Shown: positions 11,805-23,208 of the stretch, piece after piece
How the letters are laid out: every line of letters starts with the position of its first letter
How positions within the stretch are numbered: position 1 is the first letter of the stretch
Assembly: GCA_964585655.1 (NCBI GenBank)
Contig: CAZPER010000001.1
Span: forward strand, 11,729 to 75,728
Length of the DNA stretch: 64,000 nucleotides
Direction: 5' to 3'
From: an uncultured Gemmatimonadaceae bacterium
Lineage (GTDB): Bacteria; Gemmatimonadota; Gemmatimonadetes; Gemmatimonadales; GWC2-71-9
Position numbers and translations under genes: made by a program
The notes under the pieces: generated by a model
Databases searched by the model: none
What the model was told of the DNA's origin: nothing
The model's input: the letters and a program-made list of their open reading frames with translations, nothing else

Positions 11805-13277
11805 TCATGGGATGGTCCCTGCGGGAAGGGTGGCAACGGCTGCCCCGGCGCGGCGCTCGGCAAGCCGCCATTCGCGAGGATCGGAGGACAGGGGGCCGCC
11901 AAAGCGCTCGCGCAGGGTGTTGTGCAACTCCCGCCGTTGCCACTCCGGCAGCGACGGCAGGGCCGCCACCAGGGCCGGGACCGCATCGGCGCCCAGCTTG
12001 CCATGATAGTACACGTCGAAGGACCGGACCGAACTGGCTCGCCGGAGGTTTGTCTCTACGATGACCCGCTCGGGATTCACGGCGTTGAGGGTGAAGAGCC
12101 AGGCCCCCCACGCAAGCAGCGTCCCGCGCGCGAACGGCGCCGGGTGTCCCCGGAGCACCGTGGCCACGAACCAGAGCGCCGTCACCGCCAGCCCGCCCAT
12201 GAACGCGGAGGCGAAGAACCGGTCCTCAGTGAGCCCGTACTCCGCCTGGTACAGCGCCATCCGGTGCGCGGCCGAGGCCATGATCGCCAGCACCAGGACC
12301 ACCTGGATCCCCGCCAGGCTCCGGAACACCTGGGCGGCCCGCCGCGACTCCGCATCGAGACGCGCGGAAAGAAGCAACAGGAGGGGCAGCACCAGCGTCG
12401 CCACCATCACCAGCTGGAAGAATCCCTCGCGCGCGTACTCCGCCAGGGTGACTCCGGCCGTCCGCTCCACCCAGGCGGCGCCGCCGAACAGGTACGGGAG
12501 CTGGAAGGCGATGAACGCGGCGAACAGCAGGTCCACCAGCCCCAGCGTCACCGCAACCTCGACCGGACCCAGCCCGCCCGCGCGCGCCGGGCCGGGCGCC
12601 AGGATCCAGCGTCCGGCCTGGGGCAGCGCCCCATGCAGGATCGCAGCCCCCACCCAGGCCGTTGCCAGGGTAATCACCACATGCTCGGCCACGCGCTCGG
12701 GATTGAGGCGGAGGGTATCGGTCAGAAAGTCCCCGAAGACCGGGTCGGCGGAGCCAAGCAGCAGCCCGAAGACCAGCAGCACCGGCGCGGCCAGTAGGAC
12801 TCCGCGAACGTAGGGGGCGACGCGGCTGATCCGGCTCACCTCCCCCGGGCGTCGCTGCTCGTCGAGGATGGTGGCGAACCCCCCCGCCGCAAGCCGCCCG
12901 CCCAGGGCAATGAATGCCCGCACCAACCGCACCACGGTGAGATCCAGCAGCGCCCGCGCCGCCGCCGGCTCGGCCGCGAGCGGCAGGAGCGCGACCACCA
13001 CGACCAGCCCCATCGTGTTCAGCAACAGCAGCGTCTCGTTGGCGCGCCACGCCCAGACCAGCGCGAGCGCCACCGCAGCCAGCAGCAAGTTCCGCTCGAG
13101 CCGAGGCAGGGGCAGCTGCTCGGCCCGGCGATAGCGGACCCAGCAGGCCGCGACCGCGCCGACCCAGAGCGCGACGTTGAGCCCTGGCTCATTCCCCCGG
13201 AACAGCACATTACCCAGCAGGCCGAGGAGGATCACCGGCGCGAAGAGGGAGGGGTGCTCCCGGGTGTCGGTGGTCAT
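11805..13277 (-). CDS. polytopic inner-membrane protein (DUF4153/DUF4173-like)
   Basis: At least 10 hydrophobic helices. Start moved to an ATG that overlaps the uppS stop (ATGA at 13274-13277) instead of the longer track ORF. Confidence 0.6.
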
Positions 13278-13987
13278 GCGCCCTCCTGGGCTTGCAGCCG
13301 GCCGAAGCGCCGGTTCCGCTGGCGGTACTCCCCCATCGCGGCGGCGAGGTCCGCCGTCCCGAAGTCGGGCCAGCAGCGCTCGGTGAAGCAGAGTTCCGCG
13401 TAGGCGCACTCCCAGAGGAGGAAGTCGCTCAGGCGCCGCTCCCCCCCGGTCCGCACCAGGAGGTCCACGTCCGGCACCGGGCGGCGGTCATGGCCGGCCT
13501 GCCCCAGGAAGGCGGCGAACCGCTCCCGGGTCAGCGAGGGCTGGGCGCCGGCCCGCCGGGCCGCGTGCACGATCTGGTCCCGGGCAGAGTAGTCGAGGGC
13601 GATGCGGAGCCGGAGGCTGCGGCCGCCCCGGGTCGCCCGCTCCGCCACCGCGATCGCCGAGCGGACCGGCAGGGGCAAGCGGTCGCGACGGCCAATCACC
13701 GTCAGCTCCACCCCCGCCTCCGCGCCCTCGGTGGCGGTCCCCCGGAGGTATTCGGCGAAGAGCCGCATGAGCTCCTCGACTTCCGCGGCCGGCCGCTGCC
13801 AGTTGTCCGAGGAGAAGGCGTACAGGGTGAGGACGCCGATGCCGTGGGCGGGGGCGGCCCGGACGATCTCCCGCACCCGGGCGGCCCCGGCGCGGTGCCC
13901 CTCCGTCCGGGGCGCGCCGCGGCGCTCGGCCCAGCGGCCGTTGCCGTCCATGATGATGCCCAGGTGCAGCGAAGTACTTTGTTCCAT
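13274..13987 (-). CDS. uppS: undecaprenyl-diphosphate synthase (cis-prenyltransferase)
   Basis: Signature [13 protein letters not shown], then FSSDNWQRP and [19 protein letters not shown] lies 9 nt upstream of the ATG. Confidence 0.9.
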
Positions 13988-14049: not shown

Positions 14050-14418
14050 CTAGCCGCGGGCCATCCGGATCAGTGCTTCCATGTGGTCGAGGTACCGCTC
14101 CAGGGCGCGGCGGCCGGCGGCGGTGAGCCGGTAGTCGGTGCGCGGCACCCGGCCGTCGAAGCCCTTGCGGCAGGCGATGTAGCCGGCGTCCTCGAGCTGC
14201 CGGGGGTGGCGGCTGGGGTTGCGGCGGCTGGTTTTGGGGGCGGCCTGGAGTTGGCTGAAGGTCGGCGCGTCGTTCGCCCCCGGCGGGCTACCGTGGGCCG
14301 CCCGCAGCCGCTTGTGAATGAGTTTGTCCAGCGCGGGCGCGGCGCGGCCGCCCGCCTCGCCTTTGAGGGGCGCCGGCCCGCCCGGGCCGGCACGCCGTGC
14401 CGCGTTCGACTTAGCCAC
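14050..14418 (-). CDS. winged-helix transcriptional regulator (HTH_34-like)
   Basis: LDKLIH...RLR...FSQLQ...[44 protein letters not shown] matches the short HTH_34 family layout. GTG start overlaps the upstream stop by 8 nt (GTGGCTAA). Confidence 0.6.
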
Positions 14419-15028
14419 CGTGCCTCCGCGCAATCCAGATGCCGAACCCGATGTGCAGCCCGCCGAATCCCGTGGCCAGCAGGGCGTTGCCCGCCGCTGC
14501 GGGGAGCAGCAGCGCGGCGGCGCCAAGGGCGAGGAAGCAGCCCCCCATGACGGGGACGACCCGCACCGAGAGCGCGCCGCCGGTGGTGACCGCCGCGCCG
14601 TAGCAGAGCAGCCAGGTGGCCGGGAGCAGCGTGGTGTTCCCGGCCCGGTAGAGCGCCAGGGTGAGGAGCGCCCCGGCCAGGATCGGGGGCGTATAGGCGA
14701 GGACGAAGCGGCGCCCGGGGCGGCTGGTGAGCGGGGTATCCCCGGCGCTGGCCTTGCGCACCATGGCGATCACCCCGATGGCGAAGGCCAGCCACCCCTC
14801 CCCGACCCAGACCAGCAGCCAGCGCTCCACCGACGGCTGCTGGGCCGCGAGCCAGGCGGCGACCAGGGCCGTGACCCCCATCCCCACCCCGCCCCACCCC
14901 GGCACCCCGGTGAAGGCCCCCGCCCGTTCCATGGTGTCCCGGATGAATGCGAGGTTCTCCCGGGCGCGGTCTTCCAGCGGGGTCTCATCGGCCGGGGACC
15001 GGGGGGCAAGGGGACGGGGGCGAGCCAT
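14411..15028 (-). CDS. integral membrane protein of unknown function (operon partner of the HTH regulator)
   Basis: Five or six hydrophobic helices. The start is ambiguous between ATG at 15028 and TTG at 15079. The ATG is chosen because the TTG lies inside a conserved non-coding-looking motif. Confidence 0.55.
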   Translation of the reverse strand: MARPRPLAPRSPADETPLEDRARENLAFIRDTMERAGAFTGVPGWGGVGMGVTALVAAWLAAQQPSVERWLLVWVGEGWLAFAIGVIAMVRKASAGDTPLTSRPGRRFVLAYTPPILAGALLTLALYRAGNTTLLPATWLLCYGAAVTTGGALSVRVVPVMGGCFLALGAAALLLPAAAGNALLATGFGGLHIGFGIWIARRHGG

Positions 15029-15091
15029 GGCCACAGAATAGGGGCGGGCCCGCCTTTCGTCAAGTACTTTGTTTAGCAAAGTTACAGGGCC

Positions 15092-15124
15092 GGAAAGCGG
15101 GCCGCCCCCTCAGGGGGACGGCCC
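15092..15124 (-). terminator. GC hairpin terminator after the giant lipoprotein gene
   Basis: On the minus strand, GGGCCG(T)CCCCC-TGA-GGGGGCGGCCC forms 11 bp with one bulge and is followed by GCTTTCC. Confidence 0.5.
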
Positions 15125-15134
15125 GGCCCCCGCC

Positions 15135-18100
15135 CTACTGGACGGTCACGAGGCGGATGCCATTGCCCGTCACCGTCAGGAACCCGGGGATCGCGGCCGT
15201 GAACGTACTCGTCCCCGCCGCCACCGGCCGCATCGCCACCCCGCCCTGTGCCGGCCCGTTGGTGGGCGTGTAGTAGATGTTCCCCGTGGCGGCGATCACC
15301 GCCGTCTTCGGCGTGCCGGCACCCACACTGTCCACCAGGGTCGCGGCCGCGGGCGTGGTGCTGGTGAAGGTGACCACCGGCGCCGCCGGCGCCCCCGCCC
15401 GCACCGTCTGGACCCGGACCAGGGCGGTGTTCTGGACGTTCGGCAGGCCGATCTGCGCATAGAAGTTCACGTCGGGGCCGCCCGCGGTGTAGGCGCCGCT
15501 GCCCAATCCCTGGATCTCCACCGCCGGCCGGTCCACCGACACCCCGACGGTGCCGTTGGTGAAGCCGGAGGCCACCGCGGTGATTGTGACCGTGGTCGTG
15601 CTGCTGATCCCCTCCAGCCCTGCCGCGGTGAAGCTGAAGCCGGTCTGGCCGTTGGCCAGGACAATCTGGATCGATCCGCTCCCCGGCGTCGTGGCATTCG
15701 GCGCCAGCAGGAGGATGGTGCTGTCGGAGGAGGTCAGCGTCACCGTCACCCCGCCATGCTGGCTGGCGCCGAGGTTGCCGAATCCGCCCTCCTGCAGGCC
15801 GCTCCCGATCGTCGGGTAGTTGGTGCTCAGGCTGATGCTCGGCTGGATGACGTTCACCGTCCGGGCACCGCTGTTGATGGCCGGAGTGAAGCCGGGCATG
15901 CTGACCGAGATGATCGTCGAACCGACGAGGAGCGGCCGGAACGCCACCCCGCCGCCCGCCGTTCCGCTCGGGTAGGTGTAGTAGACGTTCACCGGGACCC
16001 GCGCGGTGCCGCTGGCGGCCCCGCCGCTCGCGGCCGAGAGGCTGTCCAGCACGGTGCCCACCGCGGCGGTCCCGCTGGTGAAGGTGGCCGTCAGGGTGCC
16101 GCTGGCACCGCCCCGGCGATTCTGGACCCGGGCGAGGTTGAAGTTGCCCCCGCCAAGCACGCCGATCTGGGCGTAGAAGTTCGCGTCGTTGTCGAAGGGC
16201 GTCATCTGCCCCGGGAGGCCCTGGATCTCGACCCCGGGCGTCACGGTGCGGACCAGGACGCTCTCCGGCGCGAAGCGGGGCTCGGATATCACCACCCAGG
16301 TGCTGTCCAACACCCCCTCGAGCGCCTGATAGTAGACGGTGACGCCCGTCTGGCCGTTGGCCAGGTTCCGGGTGAAGGACGGGACGCCCGGGCCGGCCGG
16401 GAGGGTGTCCACCAGGACCACGGCGGGGTTGCGGGTGGTAACCGTCACCGCCGCGCCACCATGTTGGCTGGCAGACAGGGAGCCGAACCCGGACTCCTGC
16501 AGCCCGCTCCCGATGAGGGGATAGTTCACCCCGATACTCGTGGTCGGCTGGGTGACCGCGATGCCGCGGCTGGAGGTGCCCATCGTGGCGTACCCCACCG
16601 CGCTCACCCGGACGGTGTCGTTGCCGGCGACCAGCGGCCGGAAGTGCACGCCGCCGGTGGCCGGACCGCTCGGCGGGGTGTAATAGAGGCTGCCGGTGGT
16701 GTCGATGGTCACCGTGACGGTATCCGCGCCGCCGGTGCCCAGGGTGACGCTGTCGGCCAGGATGCCGGCTCCGCCGGGCAGGCTCGCGAACGTGACCGGG
16801 AGCGGCGCCGGCGCGCCGCCCCGGAGGTTCTGCACCCGGGCCAGGGCAGTGAACTGGCCGTTCGCCACCCCGACCTGCGCGTAGAGGTTGTTGACGCCGG
16901 TGAGCGTGGTGGTGGTGGTCGGAAGTCCCTGCAGCTCCACCGCCGGCTGCACCGCCGTGACCAGCACCGAGTCGGACGCGAAGCGGGGCTCGCTCACCCG
17001 GATGTAGCCCGACAGGAACTGGGAGAATTCCTTCACCTGCACGTAGTAGGTCACACCGGTCTGGCCGTTCGGCAGTGGCTTCACGATGGAATCGTACCCG
17101 GGGCCGTTCGGCAGGGTGTCGATGACGAACACCGTCGGATCGAGCGAGCGAATGGTCACCGAGGCGCCACCGTGCTGGCTGGCCCCGAGGCTGACGAAGC
17201 CGGCTTCCTGCAAGCCGACCCCGATCTGGGGGAAGTTGATCGAGATCGAGGTGACCGGCTGGGTGACGGTGATGCCCCTGGTGGCGTTGGCCAGCGTGAG
17301 GAAGCTCGGCGCCGTGGCCGACACCGAATCGGTGCCCTGCCCCGCCGGCTTGAAGCTGATGCCACCGGTCGCCGGGCCGGACGGGGGCGTGTAGTACACC
17401 CCCGACCCGATCACGGCCTGGGCGGTCTGCGCCCCTGCCGGGGTGGCGCTGTCGATCACGACGCCGACGGCCGTGCCGCCCTGGATCGAGAACGTCACCG
17501 GGATGGGCGCGACTCCGGGCCGGTGATTCTGCACCCGGGCCAACCCGGTGAGCTGGCCATTCGGCACCCCGACCTGTGCGTAGATGTTGCTCACCGTGGA
17601 CAGCGTCGTGGTCGTGGTCGGAAGGCCCTGCAGCTCGATGCCGGAGGCGACCACGGTCACGGTGTCGGGCACCGGGGCGAACCCGGGGGCCGAGGCCGTC
17701 ACCACCGCGGGGCCACCCACTCCCTCCAGGCCGTGCACGTAATAGGTGAAGCTGGTGCTCAGCGGCGGGACGGGGACCGTCAGGCTCCCAACTCCCGGGG
17801 TGCCCAGCGCGGTCGAGAGCCGGAGGAGCGACGAATCCGAACTGGTCAGCGTGACGGTCAGGCCGCCATGGTTGCTCGCCGCGAGGAAGACATTGCCGCT
17901 CTCCACCAGCCCGTTCCCGACCTCCGGATAGTTGGTGCTGGCCGTGATGGCCGGGGCCGGACTCACGGTCACCAGCAGGCTGTCCGCCTGCAGGTTGGGC
18001 GCCGTCGCCACCAGGTATGTCGAGCAGGTCAGGCCGGCCGACCCGCCATAGCTCACCGTCGAGGTGGTGCTCACCTGGCCGGTGATGATCGTGACCGGCG

Positions 18101-20450
18101 AGGTCGCGGCGACACAGGCGGGATCCCGCGGCGTGAGGGTCACCGCGATGCCGGGGGCCGGCGCGGCGGTGGCGGCGCCATTGCTCTCGAAGTTGACGGT
18201 GATCGGGCTGCCGAAGCTCGCGTTGATGTTCAGCCCCGTCTGCACCACGTTCAGCGAGGCGGCGGTGGTGGCGGAGGTCACGCCGTCCACGTAGCTCGGA
18301 TTGCTCACCGTGATCGTCGCGGTGCCGGGCAGCACGCCTGAGAGGGTGGCATTGGCCGACTGGCTCCCGGCCGGGATGTTCACCGTCGGCGTCAGCACCC
18401 CAACCAGCGAGGTGTTGCTGCTGCTCACGGCGAAGGTCACGCCGCCTGCCGGCGCGGGGGCCGGCAGCACGATCGGCAGCGACTGGGTCTGGCCGTACGG
18501 CACCGCCAGGGTCGGCGGCACCGAGACATTGCGGTTCTGCACGTCCACGGTGAGCGACCCGGCGGTATAGCCGGACGCCGTGCCATCCAGCGTGCCGCTG
18601 CCGACCGACACCCCCGTGACCACCACGCTATCCTGGGTGCCGCCCTGCGGGATCAGAACGCTGGCCGGCGCGACGGTGAAGAGGCCGGGGGCGCTGCTGG
18701 CGAGCGCCACCACGGTGCCGCCGACCGGCGCCGGCGTGTTGAGGGTCACCCGCACCTTGGAGGTGAGGCCCACGCCCACCCCGGGAATGCCCATGAAGCT
18801 GAGCTGGATCGTGGGCTGGCCGAAGAACGTGGTCGCGCTGAAGCTGGTCTGCGCGCCCGCGGCGGTGACCGTCGCCGTCGGCGTGGCCTGGCTGCCGCCC
18901 AGCGTCCAGCTGCCCTGGACCCGGCCCTGGGCGTCGCTGGTGTCGGTCGGGGGCGCGATCGTGCCATCGGTGGCGGTCCAGACCGCTGGAATGCCCGGTA
19001 CCACGTTGGCGAAGGTGTCCCGCACCTCGGCGACCAGTGGCTGCGCCAGCGTGCGGCCGGCGGAGTCGGCCTGCGAGTCCCCCGAGATCCGCACCAGGGT
19101 GGCCACCGCCGTCGGGATCCCGGTCGCGTTGAAGGTGACGGCGGGTAGCCCGGTCACGGTGGCGGTCACGGAATTGGCGCCGATGATCTGCCCCAGCCGC
19201 CAGCTGCCGACGGTCGCGAGGCCCGAGCCGTTGGTCACGGCGGTGGCGCCGGTGACCGAGCCATTGCCGCTCGCCACGGCAAAGGTGACCGTGACCCCCG
19301 CGAGCGGCGCGTTCGCCGAATCCCGTACCAGCACCGCGGGGGCCGCCCCGACCAGCTGGTTCACGATGGCCGACTGACTGGTGGCCGACGCGGCGGTCAC
19401 CGACGCCGGACCGCCGGGCCCGCCGCCCACCACATCCAGGGTGAACAGGAGCGGGGAACCGGTGAGCCCGGCGGCCGTCACCGAGACATTCGCCGGTCCG
19501 GCGGTGCTGCCCGCGGTGACCACCGCCTGGGCGAATCCGTTGGCGTCGGTGACCCCGCTCGCCGGGGCGATCGTGGTACCGGCCGGGGGAGCGACCAGCG
19601 CGAAATTGACCGTGAACCCGGCGCTGTAGGGGTTGTTCAGCGCGTCGCGGACCTGGACCACGAGCGGCTGGGAGGCCTGGCCGGTGCCCACCTGCTGGCT
19701 GTCACCCGACACCTCCACCAGCGTGGCGGCGGCCGGGGCGATCACGATCGGCGCCGTGCGGGTGAGGTCATTGGGGGTGAGCGCGGTGAGGATGACCCCG
19801 CCCGTGGCGCCGGGCAGGGCGCGCACCCAGGCGCTGTCGAGCCCCCGCGGGATGGTCCGGACCACCAGCGTATCCGACGAGGTGATCCCCACCGGGACCC
19901 CCGGCACCACCGCCCCACCCTGCCACACCACCGCGAACGCCAGCACGCTGTCCCCCGCCGGCACGCTCCCGCTGGTCAGGAACAGCTGCACGCTGTCCGC
20001 GGCGCTCCCCGGCCCGACGTAAGTCGGGTCGAGCGGCGGAGTCGGCGTCGTCTGGCCCGAGGCGGCGGTGACCACCGCACGCACCGAGTAGTACACCACG
20101 CCGCCCCCCCGCGCCTCCGCATACAGGTAGAACTGTTCCGGCGAGGTGGTGAGCGAGACCTGGATGGGGACGATGAGCGAGTCGTTGCGGGCGGCGAAGC
20201 GGGCGGCCGGGATCAGCTGCGAGAAGGCGACGCTGGAATCGCTGGTGCGGCGCAGTTCGACGAGGACCGTATCTACCGGGATGGGAATCGCGCCCCCGGC
20301 CCGCAGCAGCCCGGTGACGTCCATGCTCCCCTGCACCACCGGCCCCGGCCCGACCGCGGAATCGGTGGAGCAGGTCGTGAGCAGCAGCGCGCCCAGGAAT
20401 GCGCGGACGGCGCGGACCAGCGCGGCACGGCGGACCGGGAGCAGGGGCAC
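15135..20450 (-). CDS. giant (1772 aa) surface lipoprotein with Ig-like (Big_1-type SGDSQ) domains and four novel tandem repeats
   Basis: GTG at 20450 gives the lipoprotein leader VPLLPVRRAALVRAVRAFLGALLLTTCS. It also avoids a 74-nt overlap with the kinase gene. The sequence is Thr/Val/Gly/Ala-rich and beta-type. Three L..(V/I)SGDSQ...QPLV..V.D modules are followed by repeats. Confidence 0.8.
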   Translation of the reverse strand: MPLLPVRRAALVRAVRAFLGALLLTTCSTDSAVGPGPVVQGSMDVTGLLRAGGAIPIPVDTVLVELRRTSDSSVAFSQLIPAARFAARNDSLIVPIQVSLTTSPEQFYLYAEARGGGVVYYSVRAVVTAASGQTTPTPPLDPTYVGPGSAADSVQLFLTSGSVPAGDSVLAFAVVWQGGAVVPGVPVGITSSDTLVVRTIPRGLDSAWVRALPGATGGVILTALTPNDLTRTAPIVIAPAAATLVEVSGDSQQVGTGQASQPLVVQVRDALNNPYSAGFTVNFALVAPPAGTTIAPASGVTDANGFAQAVVTAGSTAGPANVSVTAAGLTGSPLLFTLDVVGGGPGGPASVTAASATSQSAIVNQLVGAAPAVLVRDSANAPLAGVTVTFAVASGNGSVTGATAVTNGSGLATVGSWRLGQIIGANSVTATVTGLPAVTFNATGIPTAVATLVRISGDSQADSAGRTLAQPLVAEVRDTFANVVPGIPAVWTATDGTIAPPTDTSDAQGRVQGSWTLGGSQATPTATVTAAGAQTSFSATTFFGQPTIQLSFMGIPGVGVGLTSKVRVTLNTPAPVGGTVVALASSAPGLFTVAPASVLIPQGGTQDSVVVTGVSVGSGTLDGTASGYTAGSLTVDVQNRNVSVPPTLAVPYGQTQSLPIVLPAPAPAGGVTFAVSSSNTSLVGVLTPTVNIPAGSQSANATLSGVLPGTATITVSNPSYVDGVTSATTAASLNVVQTGLNINASFGSPITVNFESNGAATAAPAPGIAVTLTPRDPACVAATSPVTIITGQVSTTSTVSYGGSAGLTCSTYLVATAPNLQADSLLVTVSPAPAITASTNYPEVGNGLVESGNVFLAASNHGGLTVTLTSSDSSLLRLSTALGTPGVGSLTVPVPPLSTSFTYYVHGLEGVGGPAVVTASAPGFAPVPDTVTVVASGIELQGLPTTTTTLSTVSNIYAQVGVPNGQLTGLARVQNHRPGVAPIPVTFSIQGGTAVGVVIDSATPAGAQTAQAVIGSGVYYTPPSGPATGGISFKPAGQGTDSVSATAPSFLTLANATRGITVTQPVTSISINFPQIGVGLQEAGFVSLGASQHGGASVTIRSLDPTVFVIDTLPNGPGYDSIVKPLPNGQTGVTYYVQVKEFSQFLSGYIRVSEPRFASDSVLVTAVQPAVELQGLPTTTTTLTGVNNLYAQVGVANGQFTALARVQNLRGGAPAPLPVTFASLPGGAGILADSVTLGTGGADTVTVTIDTTGSLYYTPPSGPATGGVHFRPLVAGNDTVRVSAVGYATMGTSSRGIAVTQPTTSIGVNYPLIGSGLQESGFGSLSASQHGGAAVTVTTRNPAVVLVDTLPAGPGVPSFTRNLANGQTGVTVYYQALEGVLDSTWVVISEPRFAPESVLVRTVTPGVEIQGLPGQMTPFDNDANFYAQIGVLGGGNFNLARVQNRRGGASGTLTATFTSGTAAVGTVLDSLSAASGGAASGTARVPVNVYYTYPSGTAGGGVAFRPLLVGSTIISVSMPGFTPAINSGARTVNVIQPSISLSTNYPTIGSGLQEGGFGNLGASQHGGVTVTLTSSDSTILLLAPNATTPGSGSIQIVLANGQTGFSFTAAGLEGISSTTTVTITAVASGFTNGTVGVSVDRPAVEIQGLGSGAYTAGGPDVNFYAQIGLPNVQNTALVRVQTVRAGAPAAPVVTFTSTTPAAATLVDSVGAGTPKTAVIAATGNIYYTPTNGPAQGGVAMRPVAAGTSTFTAAIPGFLTVTGNGIRLVTVQ
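15138..17948 (-). repeat. four tandem ~699-nt (233-aa) bipartite coding repeats inside the giant gene
   Basis: Module A reads N(Y/F)P.IG.GLQE.GF..L.ASQHGG..VT. Module B reads VE(L/I)QGLP..........YAQ(V/I)G......ARVQN.R.G.....VTF....YYTPPSGPA.GG..F.P. DNA echoes are visible, for example at 16911-16945 versus 17601-17640. Confidence 0.75.
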
Positions 20451-20481
20451 GGGGCTCTTTGGAGTAGAGGGAGACAACTCC

Positions 20482-20510
20482 AACCTAGAGACGCACTTGT
20501 GGGGTGTCAA
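20482..20510 (-). promoter_or_regulatory. candidate sigma70-type promoter for the giant lipoprotein gene, embedded in the kinase 3' end
   Basis: On the minus strand: TTGACA (20510-20505), a 17-nt spacer, then TAGGTT (20487-20482, which includes the kinase TAG stop). It lies ~30 nt upstream of the GTG at 20450. Confidence 0.3.
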
Positions 20511-21831
20511 ACGGGCGGCCGGTGTGGGCTGGAAGCCACAGCCGTGCGCGCGCGCCACGGTCGCCCGGCCGGTTCTCCAGCGTCAGGCTTCCCCCATGAC
20601 CCTCCGCGATCTGCCGGGAGAGCGCCAGACCGATGCCCGACCCGCCGGGCTTCGTAGTAAAGAACGGCACGAACAGGTTGGTTGTCTCACCGATGCCGGG
20701 GCCGTCGTCGTCCACCTCGAGCGCCAGCCCCTGGCCGGCGAGCCGCCACCGGATCCGGACGCCGCCGCCGGAGTCGAGGGCGGCATCCACGGCATTCTGC
20801 ACCAGGTTGATCAGGAGCTGGTCGAGCTGATCGCCGTCGGCGGAGAGGGTCACCTCGGGCCCCGGCTCCACCTCCACCGGCAGCCGCCGTTCGAGCCCCG
20901 TGACGCGCCGCACCCATTCCGCCACCACCACCGGGCGGGGGACCGGCCGCGGCAGCCGCGCCAGCCGGGCGTAGGCGGCCAGGAACCGCCCCAGCGCGTC
21001 GGCGCGCTGCCCGATGATGTCGAGGCCCTGGCGCAGGTCCGCCTCGCTGTCCGGCGTCCGCGGCCCCCGGTCGAGGAGCGCCCTGAGGCTGCCGGCCAGG
21101 GAGCGGATCGGCGCCAGCGAATTGTTGATCTCGTGTGACAGCACCCGGATGAGGCGCTGCCACGCCTGGCGCTCCTCGACCTGCAGGGTGCGGCTCACGT
21201 CGGTGAGCAGCACCAGCTGGTGGGGGCGCCCATCCTGGCGGAAGCGGCTGCGCCGGAGCTCCCACCGCCCTGCCCCCGCCCCGGGGCGGTCCATGACCCG
21301 GGGGGACTCCCCCGCCAGGCACTCGGTCAGGCCCAGCGCCTCCGCCGAACGGCCCAGGAGCCGCTCCGGAGGCTGTCCCAGCAGCCGCTCGCCCCCGCGG
21401 TTGACCAGTCGCAGCACCGCCTCATCGTCGAAGGCGAACACCGCGGCGTCGATCTCGTTGAGCACTGCCCGCACCAGCGCCGTCGCCTCCAGCATGCCGA
21501 GCCGCTGGACCCGCAGCATCTCGGCCAGCTGGTTCGCTTCGAGGTACACGAGTCCGAGGGAATCATCCCGGGCGTCGGCGCCGCGGGCCCGGAGGGAGTA
21601 GTCCCCTTCGCGGAGCGCGCCGAGCACGTTGGAGAGGGTCTGCAGCGGGCGCGCCACCCGCTCGTGCAGGGAGAGGAGCCCCGCGCCGAGCCCGGCGGCG
21701 ATGAACAGGGTGGCGGTCCATTGCAGCCGGGGGGTGAAGTCCCCGCGCCAGAGCAGCACCAGCGCGATGACGACCGCCGGGAGCGCCGCCATCACCGCGA
21801 CCAGCAGCACCCGCCGGGGATGGTTCCGCAT
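20485..21831 (-). CDS. sensor histidine kinase (TM-HAMP-PAS-HisKA-HATPase, NtrY/AtoS-like)
   Basis: Two N-terminal TM helices. H-box LSHEINNSLAPI, N-box LINLVQNAVDA and G-boxes DDGPGI, GGSGIGL are present. Confidence 0.85.
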   Translation of the reverse strand: MRNHPRRVLLVAVMAALPAVVIALVLLWRGDFTPRLQWTATLFIAAGLGAGLLSLHERVARPLQTLSNVLGALREGDYSLRARGADARDDSLGLVYLEANQLAEMLRVQRLGMLEATALVRAVLNEIDAAVFAFDDEAVLRLVNRGGERLLGQPPERLLGRSAEALGLTECLAGESPRVMDRPGAGAGRWELRRSRFRQDGRPHQLVLLTDVSRTLQVEERQAWQRLIRVLSHEINNSLAPIRSLAGSLRALLDRGPRTPDSEADLRQGLDIIGQRADALGRFLAAYARLARLPRPVPRPVVVAEWVRRVTGLERRLPVEVEPGPEVTLSADGDQLDQLLINLVQNAVDAALDSGGGVRIRWRLAGQGLALEVDDDGPGIGETTNLFVPFFTTKPGGSGIGLALSRQIAEGHGGSLTLENRPGDRGARARLWLPAHTGRPFDTPQVRL

Positions 21832-21840
21832 CGCCGCGGG

Positions 21841-23208
21841 CTAGAGTCCGTACCGCTCGAGGCGCCGGTACATGGCGGAGCGGCTCAGCCCCAGGGCCCG
21901 CGCCGCCTCGGTGACGTTTCCCCCCGCGCGCGCCAGGGCCTTCTGGATCAGGACCTTCTCCACCTCTTCGAGGGTGAGCTGGTCCAGCCGGCCGGCGGCG
22001 TCGGAGGGAGGTGCCAGCGCGAGGTCGCTGGCGCGGATCTCGGTGCCATCCACCAGGAGCACCGCGCGTTCGATGGTGTGATCCAGTTCCCGCACGTTGC
22101 CGGGCCAGGGCGCCTTGAGCAGCAGCTCCATCGCCTCGGGACGGAAGCCGGTGAGCGGCTTCCGGTAGCGGGTGCCGTGCCGGTGCAGGAACTGCGCGGC
22201 CAGGCGCGGGATGTCCTCCCGCCGGTCGCGCAGCGGCGGGATCAGGATCTCCACGGTGTTCAGGCGGTACAGGAGGTCCTCACGGAACCGGCCGGTCTGC
22301 ACCTCGGCGCGCGGATCGACGTTGGTGGCGGAGAGCACCCGCACGTCCACCTTCCGCGTCTTGGACGAGCCCACCCGCTCGAGCTCCCCGGTGTTGAGCA
22401 CCCGGAGCAGGCGGGCCTGCTGCGACGGCGTGATGTTCGCGATTTCGTCGAGGAAAAGCGTCCCCCGGTCCGCCAGCTCGAACCGCCCGATCCGGTCGGT
22501 CTTCGCATCGGTGAACGCGCCCTTCAGGTGCCCGAACAGCTCGCTCTCGAACACCCCTTCGGACAACCCGCCGACGTTGACCGTGATCATCGGGCGGACG
22601 GAACGGGCGCTCGCGGCGTGGAGCCAGCGGGCGGCCACTTCCTTTCCCACGCCGTGCTCCCCGAGGATGAGCGCGTTCGCGTCCGAGGGCCCGACCCGTT
22701 CCATCAGTCGCGCCACCTGCCGCATCGCAGGCGATTCCGCAACCAGATCCGGCAATCCCTCCCGCCGGAGGCTCTGGTTCTCACTCTCCAAGCGCTGGCT
22801 CTGCCGCAGGGCCCGGCCCAGCTCCACCTGGACCCGGAGCAGCGCCACCAGCCGGGTGTTGTCCCAGGGCTTTTCCAGGTAGTCCCGTGCGCCCCGGCGC
22901 ATCGCCTCCACCGCACCCTCAACGCTGCCATAGGCCGTCATGACGACCACCGGCAGGGACGCGTCGAGCAGCTGGATCCGGGTGAGCAGGTCGAACCCCT
23001 CCATCCCCGACGTGGTGTCCCGGGTGTAGTTGAGGTCCATGAGCAGGACGTCGTAATCGCTCCGCTCCAGGGCGGCGAGGACGCCGCCCGGGCTCCCCGT
23101 GGTCTCCACCGCGAAGCCCTCCCCCTTGAGCAGCAGGCGGAGCGCCTGCAGCACATCGGGCTGGTCGTCGGCGATGAGGATGACGGGGACCCCGGCGGGG
23201 ATGGGCAT
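21841..23208 (-). CDS. sigma54-dependent response regulator (REC-AAA+-Fis HTH, NtrC family)
   Basis: REC domain (LIADDQ, DVLLMDLN). Walker A is GEHGVGKE, followed by ESELFGHLKGAFTDA, TLFLDEI and RVLSATN. C-terminal HTH is NVTEAARALGLSRSAMYRRL. Confidence 0.9.
   Translation of the reverse strand: MPIPAGVPVILIADDQPDVLQALRLLLKGEGFAVETTGSPGGVLAALERSDYDVLLMDLNYTRDTTSGMEGFDLLTRIQLLDASLPVVVMTAYGSVEGAVEAMRRGARDYLEKPWDNTRLVALLRVQVELGRALRQSQRLESENQSLRREGLPDLVAESPAMRQVARLMERVGPSDANALILGEHGVGKEVAARWLHAASARSVRPMITVNVGGLSEGVFESELFGHLKGAFTDAKTDRIGRFELADRGTLFLDEIANITPSQQARLLRVLNTGELERVGSSKTRKVDVRVLSATNVDPRAEVQTGRFREDLLYRLNTVEILIPPLRDRREDIPRLAAQFLHRHGTRYRKPLTGFRPEAMELLLKAPWPGNVRELDHTIERAVLLVDGTEIRASDLALAPPSDAAGRLDQLTLEEVEKVLIQKALARAGGNVTEAARALGLSRSAMYRRLERYGL

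Follow-up and report, generated by a model that had tools for sequence, protein, structure and literature searches.

Tandem A-B dyads at the C-terminus of a giant, probably lipid-anchored Gemmatimonadaceae protein: an unnamed and widespread family of predicted immunoglobulin-like domains

The giant gene and its four-unit array

The stretch of DNA analysed here (the window; 64,000 nucleotides (nt) of contig CAZPER010000001.1, assembly GCA_964585655.1, from an uncultured Gemmatimonadaceae bacterium) carries on its reverse strand a giant gene whose product ends in four tandem copies of a two-module unit, the A-B dyad. The mechanical open reading frame (ORF) covers 15135..20558 (-) and encodes 1807 amino acids (aa); all residue numbers given below are positions in this ORF. 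Its GTG start at 20558 sits within the 3′ end of an upstream histidine-kinase gene (kinase stop codon at 20485-20487). A second GTG, at 20450, is preceded by AAAGAG, and the peptide starting there, VPLLPVRRAALVRAVRAFLGALLLTTC followed by STDS, is kept in orthologues together with its hydrophobic stretch and Cys; orthologues of 1673-1855 aa have the common N-terminus 'VPLLP...LLLTTC'. Since the start at 20558 overlaps the kinase gene and the N-terminus with its lipobox is conserved, GTG 20450 is the likely real start of the gene, which gives a coding sequence at 15135..20450 (-) of 1771 aa with the stop codon at 15135-15137. The predicted lipoprotein signal peptide (20370..20450, -) ends in a lipobox-like L-T-T-C, read from the sequence, and 12 orthologues have retained the hydrophobic stretch with L(L/V)(T/S)TC or AGSC. 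The N-terminus of the giant protein is probably a lipoprotein signal peptide, and the mature protein would be lipidated. The GC content at third codon positions (GC3) of the giant frame is 0.93, like that of the neighbouring genes, in a window of about 72% GC throughout, and that of an antisense 1090-aa ORF at 15069-18341 (+) is 0.62. On the basis of this difference, the giant gene is judged to be real and the antisense ORF to be a high-GC shadow rather than a gene.

The array makes up the last 932 aa of the protein (aa 876-1807; 15138-17933, -). A motif search of the 1807-aa ORF returned N[YF]P.[IV]G.GL and [IV]E[LI]QGL exactly four times each and in register, with module A starting at aa 876, 1108, 1345 and 1580 and the B motif at aa 974, 1207, 1443 and 1680. 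Unit 1 lies at 17238..17933 (-; aa 876-1107) and comprises A1 (17649-17933, aa 876-970) and B1 (17238-17648, aa 971-1107). Unit 2, the modelled unit, lies at 16527..17237 (-; aa 1108-1344), with A2 at 16950-17237 (aa 1108-1203) and B2 at 16527-16949 (aa 1204-1344). Unit 3 occupies 15822..16526 (-; aa 1345-1579), divided into A3 (16242-16526, aa 1345-1439) and B3 (15822-16241, aa 1440-1579). Unit 4, assigned to a terminal 'cap' subtype described below, lies at 15138..15821 (-; aa 1580-1807), with A4 at 15531-15821 (aa 1580-1676) and B4 at 15138-15530 (aa 1677-1807), and ends in ...VTVQ. An earlier note, made from the letters of the window, had proposed four tandem bipartite copies of about 699 nt in a region of about 930 aa; its coordinates agreed with ours to within 15 nt, and the measured periods were 696, 711 and 705 nt. 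The copies are 40-48% identical to each other in pairwise protein comparisons and 53-59% identical at the DNA level over aligned codons, with DNA islands of 60-81% identity spaced 696-714 nt apart. Tandem Repeats Finder, whose period limit was 500 nt, gave no long-period repeat in the window, and an Rfam scan of the window gave no match. Profile hidden Markov models (HMMs) of the A-B family matched each copy at E = 1e-25 to 1e-35, well outside what chance would give, and read the giant protein as ABABABAB. The earlier note had also described a TTTTT linker kept in copies 1-2. The restriction to these copies was reproduced; the segment is no linker and sits in the N-terminal part of module B, where the structural models place a short strand on three of the five threonines (residues 108-110 of the unit 2 model and 12-14 of the model of B alone).

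The related region extends further upstream than these four clear units. The segment at 17934..18818 (-) contains three degenerate A/B-like β-sandwich domains, X1 (aa 581-676), X2 (aa 677-770) and X3 (aa 771-875), assigned with hhalign and the A HMM. The hhalign probabilities were 97.2% for X1 with A, 96.7% for X2 with A and 78% for X3 with B, and the A HMM also matched the degenerate domains at E 2e-7 and 5e-7. Because aa 581-875 hold three such domains, the A/B superfamily region comprises 11 domains (aa 581-1807) instead of the eight implied earlier. It is preceded by three Big_1/invasin-D3-type immunoglobulin-like (Ig-like) domains at 18819..19727 (-; aa 278-580), with Pfam Big_1 at E 7e-16 in three stretches and Invasin_D3 at E 4e-9 (aa ~278-580); they correspond to the 'SGDSQ' Big_1-type modules already noticed at about 18880-19740. 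Two of them, Big1a and Big1c, matched each other with an hhalign probability of 98%. The N-terminal region at 19728..20369 (-; aa 64-277) contains no named domain: it had no Pfam or PDB match and was unrelated to A or B in profile-profile comparison.

The age of the array was assessed in the orthologues L001-L008. In L001-L007, from GTDB species representatives, each unit of the window protein best matched the unit at the same position, with 56-96% identity. In L008, at 51-58% identity, the same was true for units 1, 3 and 4, and window unit 2 best matched unit 3. The best paralogue of a unit inside the window protein was only 43-48% identical. As the units match by position in orthologues, and better than they match their paralogues, the four-fold duplication is therefore placed before the divergence of these species. 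The ratio of nonsynonymous to synonymous substitution rates (dN/dS) of the array was 0.14 and 0.17 against the two closest orthologues, at unsaturated dS values of 0.23-0.29, and by this measure the array is under purifying selection. The comparison between copies that had been suggested was also run and gave dN/dS of 0.67-0.90 at dS of 0.7-0.86; it is uninformative because dS is compressed by the GC3 of 93% and probably saturated, and the orthologue comparisons were used instead. The positional matching and the orthologue dN/dS bear out the proposal of old duplication under selection without recent slippage. The only argument for a recent slippage product, an assembly artefact or an ORF that is no real gene is the generic risk of long spurious ORFs at 72% GC. 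We regard such an origin as ruled out for practical purposes, given the GC3 of 0.93 versus 0.62 on the antisense strand, the 53-59% DNA identity of the copies, the presence of the four units in the same order in independent metagenome-assembled genomes (MAGs) and the dN/dS of 0.14-0.17.

Sequence relationships and predicted fold of modules A and B

No Pfam or NCBIfam family matched aa 876-1807, and searches of Pfam, NCBIfam and PDB sequences with the array and the N-terminal 812 aa returned only Big_1 and Invasin_D3. The comparison of PDB sequences with the unit profile gave no match, the best (E 0.9) being the CarboxypepD_reg domain of carboxypeptidase gp180. The A and B profiles scored hhalign probabilities of 0.1-2.7% against the Big_1 domains of the same protein, and Big_1 (PF02369) was found only at aa 278-580. 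The description of A-B as an unrecognised domain pair was thus upheld by the absence of Pfam and NCBIfam matches and by the probabilities below 3%; a confident match of both modules to Big_2, Big_3 or FN3, which the earlier note had named as the finding that would overturn it, was searched for and did not appear. A literature search on the A-B family found nothing specific. The two modules matched each other with an hhalign probability of 95.8% (E 7e-9, over A 26-97 and B 48-125), and at the level of sequence profiles A and B are remote homologues.

The weak signal that recurred was that of CarboxypepD_reg (PF13620), a transthyretin-like β-sandwich. When 45 diverse family units were scanned singly against Pfam at E<=10, it appeared over the last ~50 aa of module B in 14 of the 45. 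The likeness is local to the last three strands of B ('GG..F.pl..Gt..v.a..pGF') and covers about 50 of its 135 aa. The window unit reached 11.7 bits (E 0.34) against a gathering threshold of 32.3, so that B does not qualify as a member. A few relatives reached 34-35 bits, summed over weak stretches in several B modules, and single stretches rarely passed the threshold.

The structure of unit 2 (A and B together) was predicted with AlphaFold2 from a 45-sequence alignment, with a mean predicted local distance difference test score (pLDDT) of 95.1 and a predicted template modelling score (pTM) of 0.89; the model is all-β and comprises two domains. Module B modelled alone was also all-β (pLDDT 92.0, pTM 0.85). 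The high pTM indicates that the orientation of A relative to B within the modelled dyad is defined. According to the models, both modules are Ig-like β-sandwiches, an ordinary fold class, without a close solved relative. Foldseek comparison of the A-B model with the PDB gave 113 matches at E<=1e-3, and all 50 listed were Ig-like or tandem Ig-like. They included the S-layer proteins SbsB (the best match) and SbsC, protein 4.2, CEP192/ASH-domain ciliary proteins, RbmA, the Ig domains of PrgB, MG domains of C3 and TEP1, and glycosidase Ig domains, with template modelling scores normalised to the query (TMq) of only ~0.3. The neighbours of B alone included Calx-beta domains CBD1 and CBD2, C3 MG domains, the CLIPPER stalk domain of a fibrillar adhesin, CARDB and antibody V domains, all at E 6e-4 or weaker and TM <=0.52; no transthyretin-like structure was found among the best 50 matches of B. 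The best of these, Calx-beta (NCX CBD1/CBD2), C3 MG, CARDB and the CLIPPER stalk 9ifr (E 6e-4 to 4e-3, TM 0.40-0.52), are all Greek-key Ig-like sandwiches, but with 5-17% identity the resemblance is one of fold class only. A CLIPPER-type isopeptide bond was considered for A and B and rejected, as the unit sequences lack the conserved Lys that it involves.

The conservation pattern bears on whether the modules might bind a ligand such as polysaccharide or metal multivalently instead of serving as an inert stalk. The Gemmatimonadales subfamily conserves aromatic or polar motifs, namely SQHGG in module A and both FYAQVG and YYTPPSGPA in module B; among the structural neighbours of B are the Ca2+-binding Calx-beta and the metal-binding CARDB, and R139 is nearly invariant. 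Against a binding role, conservation of YYTP and HGG does not extend to the whole family, Gly makes up most of the conserved core and the Foldseek similarities are weak. Because Gly accounts for nine of the 14 columns that are invariant or at least 90% conserved, the conserved positions look structural, unlike a binding site and as expected of a scaffold domain. We hold a ligand-binding function of the array to be quite improbable.

Distribution of the family and its terminal unit

A word-indexed search identified 83 homologue clusters, with sources named as Gemmatimonadota, Longimicrobiales or Acidobacteriota MAG proteins and with names that were mostly 'hypothetical protein'. The A and B HMMs found alternating (AB)n in 80 of the 83 homologues, with n = 1-6 and mostly 4-5, and in the remaining three (P0078, P0082 and P0083) only module A was matched. 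A HMMER search over 1.84 billion representatives gave 2,364 proteins at E<=1e-3, each representing a cluster at 50% identity, and 829 at E<=1e-30. The architecture was counted in 136 of the best representatives. Adjacent domains formed AB transitions in 643 cases, BA in 519, AA in five and BB in none; the arrays comprised 3-16 units, most often 4-5, and lay at the very C-terminus in 113 of the 136 proteins. Because the A-B alternation is so strict, the unit of duplication, as read from these sequences, is the A-B dyad and not the single domain. The genome scan was made with a four-unit alignment and is biased towards close Gemmatimonadales. Four proteins of 3483-4452 aa (P0084, P0085, P0086 and P0091) consist of nearly nothing but a signal peptide and 13-16 A-B dyads.

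Two types of architecture dominate among the relatives. In the Gemmatimonadota type, a variable N-terminal part (a lipoprotein signal and, e.g., Big_1 or DUF11) is followed by a C-terminal (AB)n, and in larger relatives the N-terminal part contains PKD, Big_5, CarboxypepD_reg, MG4, FG-GAP or a right-handed β-helix. The partner domains are all extracellular and mostly stalk-type β-sandwiches; domain searches of the relatives found no enzyme domain and no known adhesive domain together with the array. The second type, of about 1265 aa and with about 30 relatives, was found in Latescibacterota and Krumholzibacteriota genomes and consists of a signal peptide, (AB)5 and a ~97-aa sorting domain of the type IX secretion system (T9SS; Por_Secre_tail/FlgD_ig-type), carried by P0011, P0018, L035 and L038, among others. 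The window protein differs from such T9SS cargo (Por_Secre_tail, PF18962) in that it ends at the last B, without a Por_Secre_tail or CHU_C match, and 113 of the 136 representatives likewise end with B. The Latescibacterota locus L038 (chromosome CP070677) has no gene context in common with the window. It encodes, at 15194-17527 (-, in L038 coordinates), a peptidase of the C25 family that carries a T9SS sorting domain; some 3.5 kb separate it from the gene for (AB)5 plus sorting domain. This arrangement fits an active T9SS in the organism.

The units of an array are not equivalent. When units of distant proteins (<=55% identity) were compared, the last units found their best matches among last units in 63% of cases, against 24% expected; the corresponding value for first units was 27.5% against 24%, indicating almost no preference. 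Internal units open module B with a T-rich segment, 'TTTLSp' in the family consensus; last units have 'tAGaAD' in its place and lack the trailing linker. The TTTTT of copies 1-2 is the form that this segment takes in internal units. Unit 4 of the window protein is of this kind, as are the last units of L010, L012, L014, L019 and others. Judged by these sequence features, the terminal unit forms a cap subtype of its own, whose position is conserved even between distant proteins.

In Gemmatimonadota, Latescibacterota and Krumholzibacteriota, the dyad array with its cap could be a self-sufficient surface module that has its own function, such as self-association into a coat or an undescribed C-terminal determinant of attachment or export. 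Although we consider this unlikely, such a module would be more than a passive stalk and would explain why extracellular proteins that are otherwise unrelated nearly always have the array at their extreme C-terminus. Another conceivable form is an S-layer-like coat that assembles itself, in which dyads of neighbouring molecules would pack in a lattice and the terminal unit would serve attachment or lattice contacts. It would fit the ~30 relatives in which the array, between signal peptide and sorting domain, is the whole mature surface protein, the narrow copy number of 4-5, and the presence of SbsC beside SbsB, the latter as best match, in the Foldseek results. These structural matches are, however, generically Ig-like (E ~4e-6, TMq 0.30, root-mean-square deviation 8.5 Å), and in the window protein the array is accompanied by about 800 aa belonging to other domains and by an N-terminal signal for a lipid anchor. 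To our knowledge, no S-layer has been tied to the A-B family, and we give a lattice-forming coat a low probability.

Possible role of the array and its genomic setting

Taken as a stalk-like or adhesin-like structure, the array would be a non-catalytic rod of rigid dyads forming the far C-terminal part of an exported, probably lipid-anchored envelope protein, and this is the reading that we consider probable, with some reserve. The giant protein would be exported by the Sec pathway, probably anchored by lipid, and composed wholly of β-sandwich domains. Its chain of ~16 domains would include the three Big_1 domains, the three degenerate A/B-like domains and the four dyads, each dyad consisting of A (~95 aa) and B (~135 aa) as remotely homologous Ig-like domains packed in a fixed orientation. 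By analogy with the stalk of a fibrillar adhesin, the dyads may line up as a rod, with the specialised last dyad forming the free tip. The alternation would keep neighbouring domains very dissimilar, and such dissimilarity may shield a tandem-repeat protein against misfolding between its domains. An extracytoplasmic location is supported by the conserved signal peptide and lipobox and by the relatives composed of signal peptide, (AB)5 and T9SS sorting domain. We infer that the protein may be lipidated and exposed at the surface, with rod geometry from dyad to dyad and possibly an adhesive role.

A comparable alternation occurs in the staphylococcal proteins SasG and Aap, in which G5 and E repeats form a strictly alternating module pair in a long rod and neighbours are kept dissimilar. 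G5 and E are flat triple-stranded sheets, and their folds are unrelated to the predicted Ig-like sandwiches of A and B, so that the analogy would be architectural only. A further comparison is with fibrillar adhesins, which are defined by tandem stalk domains, at least one known adhesive domain, and attachment to and exposure at the cell surface (PMC8286594). The giant protein carries the corresponding tandem (eight A/B, three A/B-like and three Big_1 domains). Like fibrillar-adhesin stalks (Monzon et al. 2021, PMC8286594), for instance those that invasin and intimin build from Big_1 domains, it would be one exported, anchored chain of tandem Ig-like sandwiches, and it shares true Big_1 domains with them. 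In contrast to invasin and intimin, its repeat is a two-domain dyad, A and B lie outside Pfam and have no detectable relation to Big_1, and its anchor would be an N-terminal lipobox and not an inverse-autotransporter barrel.

Several points weigh against the stalk-like interpretation. When the whole protein was compared with Pfam, NCBIfam and PDB sequences, no known adhesive domain, one of the defining features of a fibrillar adhesin, and no ligand site came to light, and the term adhesin is for this reason an analogy only. The surface exposure of a Gemmatimonadota lipoprotein is not predictable from its sequence, and Thr at position -1 of a lipobox is unusual. In the T9SS-type relatives the array would be anchored at its C-terminal end; as these relatives would be anchored at the other end, the polarity of the array with respect to the cell is not fixed. 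The weak structural similarity (TM <=0.52 for B, TMq ~0.3 for A-B) indicates fold class and does not allow transfer of function. The modelled interface is that between A and B only, so rigidity across the junction of B with the next A would be an extrapolation of the model.

The setting of the gene is relevant to where the protein may act. The giant gene lies 34 nt downstream of a PAS histidine kinase gene (20485-21831, -), which is in turn preceded, across a gap of 9 nt, by a gene for an NtrC-type sigma-54 activator (21841-23208, -; both assigned by Pfam). The conserved order is MacB-like permease, DUF4350, regulator, kinase, giant gene, small membrane protein, uppS and DUF4153. Kinase and regulator precede the giant gene in 24 of 44 related loci, with unit identities that reach down to ~35%, and the upstream regulator is 72-98% identical across related loci. 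Co-transcription of the giant gene with the two-component genes is plausible from this arrangement. A search for TGGCAC-N5-TTGC with up to two mismatches revealed no sigma-54 promoter upstream of the giant gene, and the 58 consensus sites found across the window against 60 expected correspond to chance level.

This conserved setting could also suit a periplasmic or envelope-spanning structural lipoprotein, in which the rod would be a spacer or scaffold inside the envelope and not surface-exposed. The N-terminal lipobox is the only targeting signal, and Pfam and NCBIfam searches found no outer-membrane translocation or T9SS domain. In Gemmatimonadales the gene is a conserved, single-copy-like member of the core set with kept synteny, located next to uppS and a two-component system, which is more what one would expect of a housekeeping envelope function than of an adhesin that evolves fast. 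On the other side, the T9SS sorting domains attached to homologous arrays in Latescibacterota and Krumholzibacteriota target cargo to the cell surface, and ~16 Ig-like domains, at about 4 nm each, would if extended be much longer than the width of the periplasm. A location confined to the envelope seems to us improbable on balance, and we continue to favour the stalk-like rod.

What is new here is an unnamed and widespread domain family; the fold and the architecture are familiar and those of an ordinary surface-protein stalk. The A-B dyad represents a gap in domain annotation and not a new mechanism, with at least 2,364 clusters and arrays of up to ~16 units, mostly in uncultured Gemmatimonadota and related phyla. 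Naming the A and B families, or a single dyad family, would annotate ~230 aa per unit and mark the proteins that carry them as envelope or surface proteins. We know of almost no surface-protein genetics in Gemmatimonadota, and the strict alternation, the distinct terminal unit and the placement beside a sigma-54 two-component system in Gemmatimonadales offer testable leads on their envelope biology.

Directly downstream of the giant gene lies a gene for a predicted multi-pass membrane protein of 222 aa (14411-15079, -), which has no Pfam match and is syntenic in many relatives. Two further ORFs, at 14070-14897 (-) and 14318-15076 (+), overlap this gene, have poor GC3 and are probably spurious. 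The DUF4153 ORF (11805-13409) and uppS (13274-13987) overlap by ~135 nt at the uppS end (13274-13409, -), and the true start of DUF4153 probably lies further downstream.

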